In this document: positions 30,295-36,680 of the stretch, in pieces
Layout: each line of letters starts with the position of its first letter
Position numbering within the stretch: position 1 is the stretch's first letter
Origin: an uncultured Planctomycetota bacterium
GTDB lineage: Bacteria > Planctomycetota > Planctomycetia > Isosphaerales > Isosphaeraceae
DNA: 64,000 nt
Direction: 5' to 3'
Assembly: GCA_963737655.1 (NCBI GenBank)
Contig: CAVTTN010000002.1
Span: 4,416,001-4,480,000 of the forward strand
Made by a program: the position numbers and the translations under genes
Notes under the pieces: generated by a model
The model's input: only the letters and a program-made list of their open reading frames with translations
What the model was told of the DNA's origin: nothing
The model's database searches: none

Positions 30295-31014
30295 TCACCA
30301 TCCTCGATTCCGAATCCGCCGCCCGGGGTGAGCTTTCCGGACCTCGGCATCCGTCGGATCGATTCGTGGAGGTACTCCGCCTCTCGGCGGATCTCGGCCA
30401 ACGGGCGGGAGGACGGCACGCGTCCGAGCTCGCCACGCAATCCCGCAGACGACCAGCGCCAGGACGCAGGCAGCGATCCCCGGTCGGGGCGGGTTGAGGC
30501 CGTCAAAAGCCCGCGATGGGATCAGCGCCTTGCCCGTCCACTCCGGTGATGAGGCCAGGATCTCGAAATCCTTGACCTCGACCTCTCCGGAGGCGTCGAT
30601 GATCTGGACGAGCTTGCCCGAGTGACCGACGGGGCGAATCGCGACGAAGTGGCCACTCGGACCCATTTGAAGATGGACGATCGCCGGTCTGTCGATGGGC
30701 CAGACCCTCTCGTCGAGTCGGACGCCGCGGAGGCAAAGGCCGAGGGAGGACGCAGCCGTGACGATCTCAGAAAGCGAACGGTTGTCTGACGGCTTATCGC
30801 CCATCGCACGAGCCACGGAAGACAGAGGAGCCGGAATCTCCTCCAATTGGCATAAGACGTACAGCGAGGCGACACTACAAGGCGGAGTGTCCGTGTTCGT
30901 AACGACCTCCGCGCTCGATGCCTGCGGCCCTCCACCCAGGAAGCAGAGGACGAGAAGGGAGGGTCGAGAGATCGCCTTCGAGATCCTGCCCAAAGGGCAT
31001 GTGATGGCTGGCAT
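30295..31014 (-). CDS. Stand-alone C39-family cysteine peptidase with N-terminal hydrophobic signal and C-terminal TM
   Basis: PPCSVASLYVL (Cys), SLSEIVTAASSLG, PAIVHL...GHFVAI (His), VQIID (Asp), WTGKAL; TGATG overlap with the upstream gene. Confidence 0.8.
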   Translation of the reverse strand: MPAITCPLGRISKAISRPSLLVLCFLGGGPQASSAEVVTNTDTPPCSVASLYVLCQLEEIPAPLSSVARAMGDKPSDNRSLSEIVTAASSLGLCLRGVRLDERVWPIDRPAIVHLQMGPSGHFVAIRPVGHSGKLVQIIDASGEVEVKDFEILASSPEWTGKALIPSRAFDGLNPPRPGIAACVLALVVCGIAWRARTRAVLPPVGRDPPRGGVPPRIDPTDAEVRKAHPGRRIRNRGW

Positions 31015-32135
31015 CACTCCCTCCACTTTCGGAAACCGGCGACGATGAGGCAGGCCGACCCGATGGTGAGCAAGCCCAGCCGGGCCGCCCCGGCCCAAGT
31101 CCACGATTCGCGCGAAGGGGCCGAGGCTTCGAGCGCCTTCGCCTGGCCATCGGCTTCCGCGATCACGCGGCGGATCCGATCTTCCACGCCTCTTGGGCCG
31201 GATCGTCGAGGCCCCTGGGCCTCGAATCGCTCCTTCGATTTCCGGAGTCCGTCCGAAGCCGGGGTCGCCTCCCAATCCAGCGAGAAGCGGCGGTCCGGGA
31301 GATCCTGATTGACGCGGACGCTCCCGTCCACGACCTCGAACGTCTCCTCGAAGACGGGCGTCTTGAGGAACCTGATCCCCGTGGGCTCAATCGTCAGGAA
31401 AGAGAGCCGCCGGCCGCGAACCGGTAGCCAGAAGACCTTATCACCGACCTCGAATCTCCCCAGACCGATCTCGTCGGCCTGCATCCGAAGGTTGTCGGTA
31501 TCAAAATAGTCGTATCGCAGGGGGTTCGCCCCTCGCTGCATGTCCAACCAAAACTTATGCGTATAAGCATCTTTCTGAAACCCGGGCGGCCGGTACACGA
31601 TTTCGACCTTGAGGCACATCCGCTCCGAGCAGCGTTCCCATCCGGCCACCCGTACGTGATAGAGGCTCGGGTCCTGTCTCAGGAGCAGGAGGAAGTGAGG
31701 GAGCAGGAAGATCCGAAGCGGCGAGCGCTGCTCGTCCAAGGAGCCGATGTACCCAGAGACCGCCTCGCGCCGGGACAACTGGAGCCTGCCGTCGGGCCTG
31801 CGATTCTGCCCCCGGACCGAGCCGTTCAGCAGGCATTTCGTCGCGTGCGTCAGGGGAGCGGTCGGGTTGGAAGGCTGGACGTAGACATCGATGTGGGCGG
31901 CGTCGTCCCGACGATAGGCGAACGCCCCCTGATACGACTCCTCGAAGGGATCATGAGCGCCGGGAGGCACCTTGGTTTTTCGGTAGCGGTGATACATGCT
32001 CCCTTCGTATATGAACTCGACGTCGTCCAGTTCCTGCCACTGGTCCCGGACGAGCACCGCCAGGCGTTCGGGAGTGATGTCCGTCGCATCCAGGGAGCCG
32101 AGGAGGCATGAGACAACTGCCACACCGATTCGCAT
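31014..32135 (-). CDS. Exported LolA-fold-like protein with C-terminal TM anchor
   Basis: Signal-like N-terminus; 'GWE......CLKVE...KFWLDMQRG.NPLRY' resembles LolA-superfamily beta-sheet motifs; ends LGLLTIGSACLIVAGFRKWRE; GGAG RBS. Fold is inferred. Confidence 0.6.
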   Translation of the reverse strand: MRIGVAVVSCLLGSLDATDITPERLAVLVRDQWQELDDVEFIYEGSMYHRYRKTKVPPGAHDPFEESYQGAFAYRRDDAAHIDVYVQPSNPTAPLTHATKCLLNGSVRGQNRRPDGRLQLSRREAVSGYIGSLDEQRSPLRIFLLPHFLLLLRQDPSLYHVRVAGWERCSERMCLKVEIVYRPPGFQKDAYTHKFWLDMQRGANPLRYDYFDTDNLRMQADEIGLGRFEVGDKVFWLPVRGRRLSFLTIEPTGIRFLKTPVFEETFEVVDGSVRVNQDLPDRRFSLDWEATPASDGLRKSKERFEAQGPRRSGPRGVEDRIRRVIAEADGQAKALEASAPSRESWTWAGAARLGLLTIGSACLIVAGFRKWRE

Positions 32136-32231: not shown

Positions 32232-32723
32232 TCAATCGCCTCCGCCGCCGGGGGCGGCCTGATTCCAATATTGCGTGACGTTGTCACAGAACGTATCTCC
32301 CGGGGTATATTGGGCACACTTGGGCTGATTATTGACGATCGTGCAGGCACCGACCGCGTTCTTGCCGCATGGCACCGTCTCGCCGAACTGGATGCCGGGC
32401 GTCGCGACGTTGTCGGGATCGGTGTAGACCTTCATGTCCGTCGGATCGGCGGCGTTGGTGCATGCGATACAGTTCGTGTTGCCCGAATTCTGAACGGTGC
32501 AGCCATAGGTCCCGACGAGCGGAGGCGTCGGGGTGAGGTTTTCGTCGCAGGACGACAGGGAGTTGAGGAATGTGTGCCGGTCGGCGCCCGAGGTGGTGTC
32601 GAGGTCCGCAAGGCTCAGCGAGCCGAGGCGATCGGTCGGCTTGGCGGCGGACATCCACCCTGCCACGGCGAGCGCCGTGAAACCGATGATGGAAAGCCGC
32701 GAGACGGCGGAGTTGCGGGTCAT
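32232..32723 (-). CDS. Secreted Cys-rich precursor with double-glycine-type leader (163 aa, 8 Cys)
   Basis: Hydrophobic residues ~10-27; LSLADLDTTSGA at 36-47; 116-aa Cys/Thr/Asn/Pro-rich remainder; GGAG RBS. Confidence 0.75.
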   Translation of the reverse strand: MTRNSAVSRLSIIGFTALAVAGWMSAAKPTDRLGSLSLADLDTTSGADRHTFLNSLSSCDENLTPTPPLVGTYGCTVQNSGNTNCIACTNAADPTDMKVYTDPDNVATPGIQFGETVPCGKNAVGACTIVNNQPKCAQYTPGDTFCDNVTQYWNQAAPGGGGD

Positions 32724-32848: not shown

Positions 32849-33865
32849 TCAATCGACGAGTTCCGAGCCATTGCGGCTGCCCAGGCCGCGCCAGACGGGC
32901 TGAGAAATCGATTCCGGGACGAACCGGACCGAGCCGTCCGCCATCAAAACGTTCACGCCGCCGGGGTGCAGGCTCCGGGCCGTGGCCATGCCGAGCGCGG
33001 CATACATCGAAGGGGCGAGGCAATCGGGCACCGAGCCGTTGGGGGCCTGGGCATGGTTGTAGAGGGTCCGCTCGCGGCCCGACCAGAACCAGCCACTCCC
33101 ACCGCCCACGTAGGCCCCGACTCCGGGCCGGGCGAACGCCTGACATCCGTGGACGAGCTGATCCGCCGTGAACAGGGCGGTCCGCCACGGATAGTAGTCC
33201 CGAGCCGGGATCGGGTCGTCATCCCGGCCCGAGCCGCGGAGCCGTTCGCTGAACGCGGCGGTGTGGGAGAACCCGTCGGGGACGGAGGCGGCCAGGACGT
33301 AGGCGGCCTCGGGGAAGAGCCCGTTGCCGCTGTCCGAGAATTCTGCGGAAGTATGGGCGCCGGGGCCGATGCCCACGTTCCCTCGATAATTGTTCCCCGC
33401 CCACCCCGGCAATCCGCCGTCGCTCGGGCAGAGGAAGAGATCGACGACCGTGGCGGCGACCGTCGCGTTGGCGGCGTTCCGCGACTCCTCGGAGGCGCCG
33501 AGGCTCGCGATCCCCAGGGCGTTCGGGGGCAAGGTCCCGATGGCGAAATTCGCGGAATCAAACAGGGTGGTCTGGTCGAGATAGGGCAGGAGCCGGGAAT
33601 GGACGGAATAGAATCCCATGTAACCGACCCGACCGTTGGTCATGTTCGACGGCGGGAACCAATCGTTGTCCCGGATGTATCCGTGGAGCGCCAATCCGAT
33701 CTGCCGGAGATTGTTGCTGCATCGGGCCCGCCTCGCCGCCTCGCGGGCCGCCTGGACGGCCGGCAAGAGCAGCGCGGTCAGGATCGCCGTCAAGCCGAGG
33801 ACGACGAGGGCCTCGATCAGCGTGAAGCCGGCGCGTCGGCTCGCCGGGCCCAAGGAATGGGTCAT
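32849..33865 (-). CDS. DUF1559 prepilin-type N-terminal cleavage/methylation protein
   Basis: [11 protein letters not shown]...[39 protein letters not shown]-terminal [16 protein letters not shown] (H-X9-DG). Confidence 0.93.
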
Positions 33866-34922
33866 CGACGGGCCTCCCCGGAGTTGGGGACCTTGAGCAG
33901 GTGGACGACGACTCGGGCCTGCTCCGGGTCGTCGGTCTCGATCACGACATCGCCCGCCTCCGCATCGCGGGGCGGGCCGATGGACAAGCCGATCCGATGG
34001 AGACCCGCGGCCCCGGAGGTGCCTCTCGTGACCTCGACGAATCGAGGGCTCGTGATCCGCACGACGCGGAACGGTATGCCGTCCGACCTCAAGAGGATCG
34101 ACCGCTTGACCTGGTCCCCGGATTCCCCGAAGACGAGGGAGGGAGGGAAGGCCCGGATCTTGGGAAGCACTTCCCAATTCAGAACGTGTCGGTATGGTGC
34201 GTCCGAGGACCAGGTGACCGTGATCTCGCCCGTTCGCTGTCCCGGCATTTCTCCGGGCGGTATCTCCACTTCGATGTCACGGATCGTCTCCACCAACCCC
34301 TCGGGCAGCGAGCGGGATGTTTCGGGCCCGGCGAAACGGGCGGATAGGGGACTCGCGGCGAGGACGGCCCGAGGGCCACTTCGTCCGAGCTGGCCCAGCC
34401 GACGGCTCGTGATCCGGAGCCGCCGTCGGCCACTCCTGTTCACGACGACCACGCTCGACGTCCCCTCGGAATCGATTTCCGACGCCTCGAAATCGGAGAA
34501 GAGATTCGCGCTGAGGGTGTACAGGAAGACCGGACGATCGGCCGAGGCCGTCTCGACCGCGAAGGCGAACCTCCTGGGACCCGTCTGTCGTCCGGCGTTG
34601 AACCGGACTGGCACCCGGATGCTCGCCCCGGCCGGGACGACGTCCGGCAGCGGACCGATCGACGAGCAGCACGGTATCCTGGCAGCCACCTTGGTCAACT
34701 TTAGCGGGGACGACGAAGCGTTTTCCAGCAAGAAATCGTGAGTGATAGTCTGATCATGGCCTAGCACGAGCCCGAAATCAAAATGCTGAATCGAATCCCC
34801 CGCGACCTTCTCGGGGGCCGCCAGCTCGACCCCAGGAGAGACATCGATCCGGTCCGTCGCGGGCCGAGAACAGCCGGCGATCATATATATATATATATGA
34901 TCGAAAAATATTTCCTTTGCAT
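33862..34922 (-). CDS. DUF1573 Ig-like domain lipoprotein, out of frame at an (AT)8 tract in the signal-peptide region
   Basis: FDFGLV...F.LEN....PLKL......PCC...PG; lipobox IAG|C. The ATG at 34922 with GAGGA RBS reads [13 protein letters not shown] as assembled. ATGA overlap with the DUF1559 gene. Confidence 0.75.
34878..34903. repeat. (AT)8 microsatellite inside a perfect 26-bp palindrome CGATC(AT)8GATCG
   Basis: Read directly; AT tract at 34883-34898. Confidence 0.95.
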
Positions 34923-35189
34923 CGGAATCCTCACCATCCGGTTTGCTCCGCGTTGAAGGATAGGTGACTGACTGATTCCTCTTGGGCAACTTAAATGGGG
35001 TGCATTCCGCTTTGCAACAACAAAATCGCAATTTGGGTAAAAAATGAAATGGAAACGGCCATCCATGGCGAGGGGATGCGGCGATCGCGGCGCGATCCTC
35101 CGACCGCCACCCGTTAGGGATCTTCGCGCCGGACGAGTTCCCCTTTACAATACGAGAGGCTCTCTCCGTCCCCTCGGGACCACTCGTCC

Positions 35190-36680
35190 ATGTTTGATGA
35201 TATCCAGAAACGCCTCTCCGGCGCCTTCGGCCGGTTCCGGGCCCGAGGGGTCTTGACCGAGGCGAACATCCAGGACGGCCTGCGAGAGGTCCGCACGGCC
35301 CTTTTGGAAGCGGACGTCCATTACAACGTCGTCCAGGCGTTCATGGCCCGGGTGGGCGAGCAGGCCGTCGGCGCCAACCTGATCAAGAGCGTCCGTCCCG
35401 AGCAGCAGATCGTCAAGATCGTCCACGACGAGCTCGTGGCCCTGATGGGCCCGGCCGACGCCTCGATCCGCATCGAGAAGAACGGCCCGACGGTGCTGAT
35501 GCTCTGCGGCCTCCAGGGTTCCGGCAAGACGACGACCTGCGGCAAGCTCGCGAAGATGCTGAGCGCCCAGGGCCGCAAGCCCCTGCTCGTCGCCGCCGAC
35601 CTCCAGCGCCCCGCCGCCATCGAGCAGTTGAAGGTGATCGGCCAGCAGCTGCAAATCCCCGTCTACAGCGAGGCCACCGCCAACCCGGTGAAGGTCTGCC
35701 AGGATGCCCTGGTCGAGGCCAACCGCCAGGGCCGCGACACGATCATCCTCGACACCGCCGGGCGCCTCCACGTCGACGACGCCCTGATGGCCGAGCTCCA
35801 GCAGATCGAGAAGAAAGTCAAGCCGCATCAGGTGTTCTTCGTCTGCGACGCCCTGACCGGCCAGGACGCCGTGGCCTCCGCCGGGGCGTTCAACAAGGCC
35901 CTCGAGCTCGACGGCGTGATCCTCACGAAGCTCGACGGCGACGCCCGGGGCGGCGCCGCGCTGTCGGTCCGCCAGGTCACCGGCGTCCCGATCAAGTTCG
36001 TGGGCATGGGCGAGAAGCTCGACAAGCTCCAGCCCTTCGACCCCGAGCGCCTGGTCGGCCAGATGCTGGGCATGGGGGACATCGTCGGGCTGGTCGAGGC
36101 CGCGCAATCGGCCGTGGACGAGGAAGAGGCCCTCCGGCAACAGGAGAAGCTCGCCAAGGGCAAGTTCGACCTCAACGACTTCCGCCAGCAGATCATCCAG
36201 ATGAAGAAGATGGGGTCCGTCAAGGACCTCATGAGCAAGATCCCCGGGATGAGCCAGATGACCGGCCAGCTCGACGGCGTGGACGCCGACGGCGAGGTCA
36301 AGCGCATCCAGGGGATCATCGACAGCATGACCCCCGAGGAGAGGAAGAACCCCCACCTGATCAACATCTCCCGACGGCGACGGATCGCCGCCGGGGCGGG
36401 CGTGGACCCGTCGGACATCTCCGGGCTCGTCGATCAGTTCGACGCCATGGCCGCCGTCGTCAAGCAGATGGCCTCGATGTCCATGCTCGACAAGATCCGG
36501 ATGATGACCGGCCTGGGCCGCGCCGGCGCCTTCAACCCCGGCGCCAAGCTCGTGGCCCCCAAGCAGGGCACCGGCAAGAGGCTGAGCCCCAAGGAACGCG
36601 AGAAGCTGAAGAAGCAGAGAGAGAAGGAAGAGCGAAAGAAACGGCGGGAGGAGCGCGGCCAGAGGCCCCCGGGCCCCTGA
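35190..36680 (+). CDS. ffh: Signal recognition particle protein
   Basis: GLQGSGKTT, DTAGR, TKLDGDARGG, SMTPEER...SRRRRIAAGAG. Confidence 0.98.
   Translation: MFDDIQKRLSGAFGRFRARGVLTEANIQDGLREVRTALLEADVHYNVVQAFMARVGEQAVGANLIKSVRPEQQIVKIVHDELVALMGPADASIRIEKNGPTVLMLCGLQGSGKTTTCGKLAKMLSAQGRKPLLVAADLQRPAAIEQLKVIGQQLQIPVYSEATANPVKVCQDALVEANRQGRDTIILDTAGRLHVDDALMAELQQIEKKVKPHQVFFVCDALTGQDAVASAGAFNKALELDGVILTKLDGDARGGAALSVRQVTGVPIKFVGMGEKLDKLQPFDPERLVGQMLGMGDIVGLVEAAQSAVDEEEALRQQEKLAKGKFDLNDFRQQIIQMKKMGSVKDLMSKIPGMSQMTGQLDGVDADGEVKRIQGIIDSMTPEERKNPHLINISRRRRIAAGAGVDPSDISGLVDQFDAMAAVVKQMASMSMLDKIRMMTGLGRAGAFNPGAKLVAPKQGTGKRLSPKEREKLKKQREKEERKKRREERGQRPPGP

Follow-up and report, generated by a model that had tools for sequence, protein, structure and literature searches.

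Our analysis of a 64,000-nucleotide (nt) stretch of Isosphaeraceae DNA, here referred to as the window, revealed an (AT)8 tract within the 5′ coding region of a predicted lipoprotein gene, which very probably constitutes a real and functional repeat switch, that is, a contingency locus. The tract (34883..34898, minus strand) is located within the hydrophobic segment of the signal peptide, where it reads as Ile-Tyr repeats. The lipoprotein ATG at 34922 is preceded on the minus strand by a 5-base spacer and a GAGGA motif (34932-34928) that resembles a ribosome-binding site, the whole element occupying 34920..34932, and seven codons separate this ATG from the tract (34898-34883). Directly past the tract follow codons for Ile-Ala-Gly-Cys, with the Cys codon at 34872-34870; together with an internal in-frame ATG they occupy 34870..34884 of the minus strand, and we take them, by the lipobox consensus, to be a lipobox. 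The earlier note on this DNA had described this arrangement, and re-reading of the strand gave the same layout.

AT is a non-triplet unit, and in this 5′ coding region the unit number sets the reading frame. When the number was varied computationally, 4, 7, or 10 units gave an open frame of 350 to 354 codons; 5, 8, or 11 units led to a stop after 11 to 15 codons, precisely 13 at 8 units; and 6 or 9 units gave a junk peptide of 46 to 48 residues. This arithmetic agrees with the prior claim that 8 units stop at once and that 7 or 10 stay open. At 8 units the body of the gene is out of frame with ATG 34922, an in-frame ATG at 34884 shares bases with the stop codon (ATGA), and the database protein P0001 begins at this internal ATG. 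A promoter scan of positions 34850-35250 returned no sites.

The tract stands out from its surroundings. It is the sole AT run longer than 9 nt in the assembly (7,630,435 bases in 3 contigs, about 68% GC) and, at 16 nt, the longest perfect dinucleotide run in it, the runner-up measuring 11 nt. When the 300 nt around it were shuffled 100,000 times, AT runs reached 11 nt at most, and the impression that such a run is striking in GC-rich DNA was thereby borne out. The tract also forms the center of a perfect 26-bp palindrome (34878..34903) with 5-bp arms past the tract. The same holds for an AT tract found in a relative (L105), where the extra arms measure 7 bp; both tracts are coding, and 12 other AT runs from relatives have palindrome arms of 0 to 2 bp. 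A hairpin or cruciform might seed or destabilize an AT tract.

The lipoprotein gene is the first of five tightly spaced minus-strand genes; the divergent neighbor, ffh (SRP54; 35190..36680, plus strand), lies outside the cassette. Its body, 340 amino acids (aa) from the internal ATG (33862..34884), consists of a tether and three HYDIN/CFAP65-like Ig domains. The open reading frame behind the tract had previously been named DUF1573, and the Pfam match (PF07610) indeed exceeded the gathering cutoff (28.9 versus 26.1 bits); DUF1573 was also matched at an E value of ≤0.01 by 42 of 46 homologues. The structure model displayed three beta-sandwich domains (pLDDT of 80), and its best structural matches were HYDIN/CFAP65-type Ig repeats. 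With a signal and lipobox by our own score and an Ig-like fold, the protein is predicted to reside in the envelope. The Ig-domain region contains a conserved Pro-Cys-Cys motif, and the protein shows a weak, below-cutoff match to a selenoprotein family; the Cys-Cys pair and this match hint at a thiol or chaperone role, which we treat as a lead only.

The DUF1573 stop codon overlaps the start codon of the second gene (ATGA), which encodes a pilin-like protein of 338 aa (32849..33865) in which the N-methyl motif, the DUF1559 domain (PF07596), and the H-X9-DG C-terminal domain are all present. The third gene (32232..32723) encodes a secreted Cys-rich protein of 163 aa and 8 Cys residues, with a signal or anchor and a variable core, which had no Pfam family match and no usable match in the Atlas. 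By eye, it contains a Leu-x4-5-(Arg)-Gly-small motif that, judged by the consensus, resembles a double-glycine leader. Next come a LolA/RseB-fold protein of 373 aa with a C-terminal membrane helix (31014..32135), whose Atlas matches were solely planctomycete clusters without a Pfam family, and a C39-family peptidase domain protein of 239 aa (30295..31014), whose ATG overlaps the upstream stop codon. The C39 domain (PF03412) scored above its cutoff, with candidate catalytic residues Cys46 and His122, and the Cys and His motifs were also found in homologues; with 239 aa, a single C39 domain, and a membrane helix, the protein is not fused to an ABC exporter (PCAT), and no ABC transporter was seen within the cassette. 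The gene order is kept in relatives, with the LolA-fold gene present in 23 and the C39 gene in 21 of 24 longer loci, the same 24 on which both profiles were built. A Cys-rich secreted protein follows DUF1559 in 23 of the 26 cassettes inspected, and most of these proteins, by eye, carry a Leu-rich motif ending in Arg-Gly-small.

A profile search of 121 genomes of the family yielded matches in 60 of them. The three same-genus genomes held no DUF1573 cassette gene by profile search, the best protein match to the window gene was 41%, and no orthologue with the same tract was found. The clusters of four proteins had one member each, and there was no match in plasmids. Out of 122 loci scanned, 17 were dropped (11 for an incomplete 5′ end or an N terminus without a match, 6 as duplicates), and 6 more were unclassifiable and kept outside the main count, 4 of them with a repeat. 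The others were divided into cassette and noncassette genes by the presence of a downstream DUF1559 gene, a split made blind to repeats. Using thresholds of 9 nt for mono-, 10 for di-, 16 for tetra-, 18 for penta-, 21 for hepta-, and 24 for octanucleotide repeats, we detected a repeat within the 270 nt preceding the domain in 46 of 69 cassette homologues (44/67 without the two of the genome itself) and, under the same thresholds, in 1 of 30 noncassette DUF1573 paralogues (Fisher P = 1e-9, with kin not independent). Strict thresholds gave 28/69 versus 0/30. The repeats are confined to the 5′ end: none of the 69 genes had one in any of three gene-body windows, 4 had one further upstream, and 1 had one in the next 1.9 kb downstream, the DUF1559 genes included. 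As background, 138 of 28,162 windows of the genome itself (0.5%) contained a repeat, as did 1 of its 60 in-frame lipobox-like starts, a control that is by design blind to OFF genes. The remaining 23 of the 69 cassette genes had no repeat at the chosen thresholds. The earlier proposal of phase variation is thus strongly supported by the relatives, both by the 46/69 repeats and by the frame differences in close pairs described below.

The repeats at cassette 5′ ends are of twelve motif types. Pentamers and AT concentrate in the signal peptide, poly-G/C occurs just past the start or in the tether after the Cys, and five of the pentamer motifs encode strongly hydrophobic peptides. Neither site nor motif is conserved across the homologues, whose nearest-neighbor protein identity ranges from 28 to 84%. 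On a quick tree with 46 tips, from which 23 of the 69 loci were left out as having no full protein pair, 13 labels required 23 changes. Differing motifs at differing places cannot go back to a single common origin, and the same switch appears to have arisen many times in the cassette lipoprotein family. The two AT cases may share one origin; the tract in L105 is an (AT)9 at the matching signal position and is likewise OFF. An extreme array was seen in L149 (genome G128), where about 40 units of a 5-base repeat stand right behind the ATG of the cassette lipoprotein. In L113, a repeat-free cassette gene, the frame is broken, by eye, by a 14-nt tandem duplication beside the lipobox codons. Among 401 genomes searched from the class, only those of the family itself contained the close subfamily, with a best E value outside it of 1e-36; among the best 20 outside matches, 19 had neither DUF1559 nor a 5′ repeat, and the one near DUF1559 carried a 31-nt 4-base repeat in its 5′ region.

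Frame states were called by our own simple signal-peptide score, applied before and after a one-unit change. Among the 46 repeat-bearing loci, 33 were OFF and mended by one unit, 8 were ON (one of them with a promoter run), and 5 were unclear; both out-of-frame classes occurred, and whole-unit shifts were seen for the 5-base repeats. Two of the OFF calls, L086 and L130, were weakly scored, and in four to five OFF genes the repeat itself contains a weaker start that is in frame. The 23 repeat-free loci comprised 18 ON genes and 5 without a signal, 2 of which have subthreshold runs at the break. Close pairs differ in frame at the tract. P0007, an allele for which only the protein is known, shares 97% identity with the body of L084, which is ON, and switches frame exactly at the G9 of L084; L129 (ON) and L106 differ by 2 nt at a G run; and L100 (G7, ON) and L139 (G12, OFF) are 92% identical. 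For the comparison of orthologues that the earlier note had proposed, the same-genus genomes lack the gene; homologous close pairs do show the difference. Change of tract length at the locus in the window itself we infer from these homologues.

Genomes of at least 120 contigs, which from their contig number we regard as short-read-like (18 genomes, 38 loci), had a repeat in 28 of 38 loci, 19 of which were OFF and 6 ON, and the body was intact in 18 of the 19 OFF genes. In the assembly under study, tblastn of 136 query frames from a same-genus genome against matched regions counted 12 frameshifts in 73,542 aligned coding bases of 58 genes (about one per 6 kb). They are mostly one-base losses in a G/C-rich context, and 9 of the 12 belong to the frame class that a single extra base repairs, as does the (AT)8 tract, so that the earlier caveat about indels that look like assembly errors was well placed; any single frameshift in this genome calls for caution. 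Such errors lend weight to a reading in which the gene is stable and always ON, with 7 true units or a base missing just upstream, and the tract is a mere Ile-Tyr stretch; one added base upstream of the tract likewise opens the frame, and an error could well hold for the allele state. As an explanation of the locus we nevertheless consider it very unlikely: with 7 units (14 nt) the tract would still exceed every other dinucleotide run of the genome, most upstream one-base repairs place Asp-His in the hydrophobic region, and an error would leave unexplained the confinement of the repeats in 46/69 homologues to the 5′ end, the whole-unit shifts of 5-base repeats, and the intact-body OFF alleles in fragmented assemblies.

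The state of the assembled allele is a narrower matter. The earlier note had called it OFF, which is likely, yet insecure given 12 frameshifts with 9 of the same class. In our judgment the 8-unit allele is probably truly OFF, because 19 of the 25 classified genes in short-read-like relatives are OFF, and a real majority allele in the ON state is rather unlikely. The note had further supposed that this allele could be polar on the coupled DUF1559 gene; at 8 units this is doubtful, because the stop codon overlaps the in-frame ATG, and reinitiation at 34884 could give a signal-less protein of 340 residues and keep the DUF1559 coupling. The 6- and 9-unit states are better candidates for polarity.

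With the repeat switch as the preferred reading, the excess of OFF genes deserves attention, since random tract lengths would leave two thirds of the genes OFF, and 33/40 is more than that (P = 0.02). Together with the 14 of 69 bodies flagged as broken, it fits some decay or sequencing error. One-way decay would go further and regard the repeats as hot spots for mutation in accessory cassettes undergoing loss, with the OFF genes as nonreverting young pseudogenes; besides the OFF excess and the broken bodies, the patchy presence of the cassette and a paralogue in the same genome whose body carries a second frameshift and a TAG (see below) speak for it. We hold this to be highly improbable, as the bodies of 18/19 OFF genes in short-read-like genomes are intact, hardly any long repeats occur elsewhere in the cassette, and the ON alleles at 8 loci retain their repeat. 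Moreover, decay would not create 12 repeat kinds solely where they are tolerated in frame, nor five pentamer motifs that read as strongly hydrophobic peptides.

As recoding signals, alternating AT, repeats of 5 to 8 bases, and runs in promoter spacers would, to our knowledge, be atypical, which, along with the nonconserved site and motif and the occurrence of both out-of-frame classes, makes expression tuning a very improbable reading. There, slippage of RNA polymerase or ribosomes would supply every cell with in-frame protein at a steady low level and with no heritable switching, an idea to which the out-of-frame majority of alleles and the slippage of poly-A/T and other runs in transcription or translation, as treated in the accessible part of PMC3711429, lend some appeal. 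Loss of mismatch repair as a cause was rejected upon the finding of MutS and MutL in the genome; the two proteins should damp the slippage of 1- and 2-base repeats, which speaks against the switch.

In the heritable switch that we propose, slipped-strand mispairing in replication would add or remove AT units, a mechanism established for changes in unit number (PMC3711429, in its accessible part). At 7 or 10 units, ATG 34922 would be joined to a basic-hydrophobic signal of 16 to 18 residues, the lipobox Cys, and the three Ig-like domains, and the membrane-anchored lipoprotein would be made (ON). At 8 units, translation would stop after the 13 codons and at best yield the signal-less protein from the overlapping ATG, and at 6 or 9 units it would yield only the junk peptide (both OFF). 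Elsewhere in the family, the same role would fall to signal-peptide repeats with units of AT or of 5 to 8 bases or to poly-G/C just past the start, in the tether behind the Cys, or right behind a TTGAC box. Because the switched gene leads the five-gene cassette, the switch probably gates an envelope apparatus in a fraction of cells. ON cells would make the lipoprotein needed by the cassette, which would mature and export or display the disulfide-rich peptide with the pilin-like protein, the C39 domain presumably cutting the peptide. Selection might come from phages, grazers, or competitors; selection of phase variants by phages is described in the available text of PMC6625227.

Tentatively, and as one joint reading that we would not yet bet on, environmental Isosphaeraceae may carry a repertoire of paralogous envelope cassettes, each with its own disulfide-rich peptide and pilin-like carrier and each behind an independently evolved repeat switch on the lead lipoprotein or promoter. 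With most switches OFF, single cells might express different subsets, resulting in a combinatorial variation of surface or weapons that operates without a known host immune system and is probably directed against phages, grazers, or competitors.

Among the closest known systems are Helicobacter pylori oipA and hopZ, in which, as far as the accessible text of PMC4205683 goes, 6 to 13 units of a CT dinucleotide in signal-peptide codons set the frame. Like these genes, our locus has a dinucleotide tract of comparable length within signal-peptide codons, and its product is a predicted envelope protein. The locus differs from them in its AT motif, in its target, a DUF1573 lipoprotein that leads an operon, in the presence of MutS and MutL, and in the use of 12 motifs instead of one among the homologues. 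In Neisseria, the opa repeat is located in the signal peptide. The opa pentamers and the promoter-spacer runs of porA (both covered in the accessible portion of PMC5084427) are matched here by cassettes whose 5-base repeats read as hydrophobic peptide in every frame and by homopolymer runs behind a −35 box, also in homologous cassettes. However, Opa paralogues share one inherited pentamer, whereas the cassettes, in environmental planctomycetes, use unrelated pentamers and other motifs. A frameshift switch of an operon-encoded lipoprotein is known from P78 of Mycoplasma fermentans (cited in the part of PMC3711429 available to us). It shares this layout with our locus, but there the repeat is poly-A, the operon encodes an ABC transporter, the organism is a wall-less parasite, and the genes are unrelated.

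Double-glycine leader systems combine a small precursor, bearing a Leu-rich motif that ends in Gly, with a C39 peptidase domain containing Cys and His. The cassette has a small putative precursor with, by eye, a Leu-rich, Gly-ending motif beside a C39 domain. Here, in contrast, a signal or anchor is additionally present at the N terminus of the precursor, and the C39 domain is free-standing, no ABC transporter being seen among the cassette genes. Of the accompanying proteins, one is pilin-like, one is an Ig lipoprotein, and one has a LolA fold.

In the openly accessible literature searched, we found no report on planctomycete phase variation or on the cassette and no paper containing both DUF1559 and DUF1573. 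In their accessible portions, PMC2754498, PMC10632474, PMC4807772, and PMC5352709 name DUF1559 without a tested function, and a phylum-wide repeat survey (PMC4060949) names no such locus. The mechanism is already known, mainly from pathogens as far as the accessible text of PMC3711429 tells; the setting and the convergence are new. That two thirds of the cassette members carry a frameshifting repeat, with 12 motifs among them, points to repeated selection for switchability. The system further offers a handle on DUF1559, which is among the largest planctomycete paralogue families (68 copies in Planctopirus and 74 in Rhodopirellula according to the available parts of PMC10632474 and PMC2754498, respectively) and has no known function, because natural ON and OFF clones would be ready-made mutants. 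Gene callers truncate the switched genes, which look like assembly errors, so the system is easily missed.

Further runs occur at DUF1559 loci of the same genome. Its two longest G/C runs, a C16 and a G12, both lie there. The G12 run (C2:1438785-1438796; L042:1501-1512) is located just past the start of a second DUF1573 lipoprotein gene, which heads a full paralogous cassette and is out of frame as assembled; its body contains the second frameshift and the TAG mentioned above. The C16 run (within C2:4614504-4614535), the longest homopolymer of the genome, is flanked by a TTGAC box and a −10-like site about 60 nt upstream of another DUF1559 gene and is a candidate promoter-spacer switch by its sequence context. 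The genome has 48 DUF1559 loci, and each of the three longest mono- and dinucleotide runs lies no farther than 1.5 kb upstream of such a locus, in regions that make up 1.0% of the genome, a pattern noticed after the fact; none of the 29 other listed runs lies there. In relatives, the idea that long G/C or AT runs generally mark DUF1559 loci was not supported: at the first loci listed from other genomes, DUF1559 lay within 1.5 kb of 1 of 21 G runs and 3 of 12 AT runs, and many G runs in relatives are contig-end artifacts. TTGAC followed by at least 10 G or C residues was found at 27 loci in the 121 genomes, and the pattern alone is only modestly above its reversed control, which gave 17 raw matches. 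A same-strand DUF1559 gene lay downstream within 7 kb at 13 of these 27 loci (20 of the 27 having been extended); at 2 more, situated at contig ends, the run precedes a gene for a Cys-rich secreted protein, and the other 12 are unrelated.

A second cassette order was observed behind TTGAC plus poly-G/C runs at L269, L271, L272, and L279, with the Cys-rich secreted protein first, then C39, and then DUF1559 with or without DUF1573. At C2:4641117-4641125, an in-frame G9 follows the lipobox Cys of a small lipoprotein beside another DUF1559 gene and may represent only Gly codons. The genome also contains dozens of GGGCAGT-type 7-base arrays of up to 24 units, often in inverted pairs (e.g., C2:1242672-1242838), which we set aside as unrelated to the switch. 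Finally, clusters of short single-domain DUF1573 genes adjoin DUF1559 genes, without long repeats, at C2:6314600-6318200 and 5611900-5620000, and one of the two holds a small Cys-rich secreted peptide.
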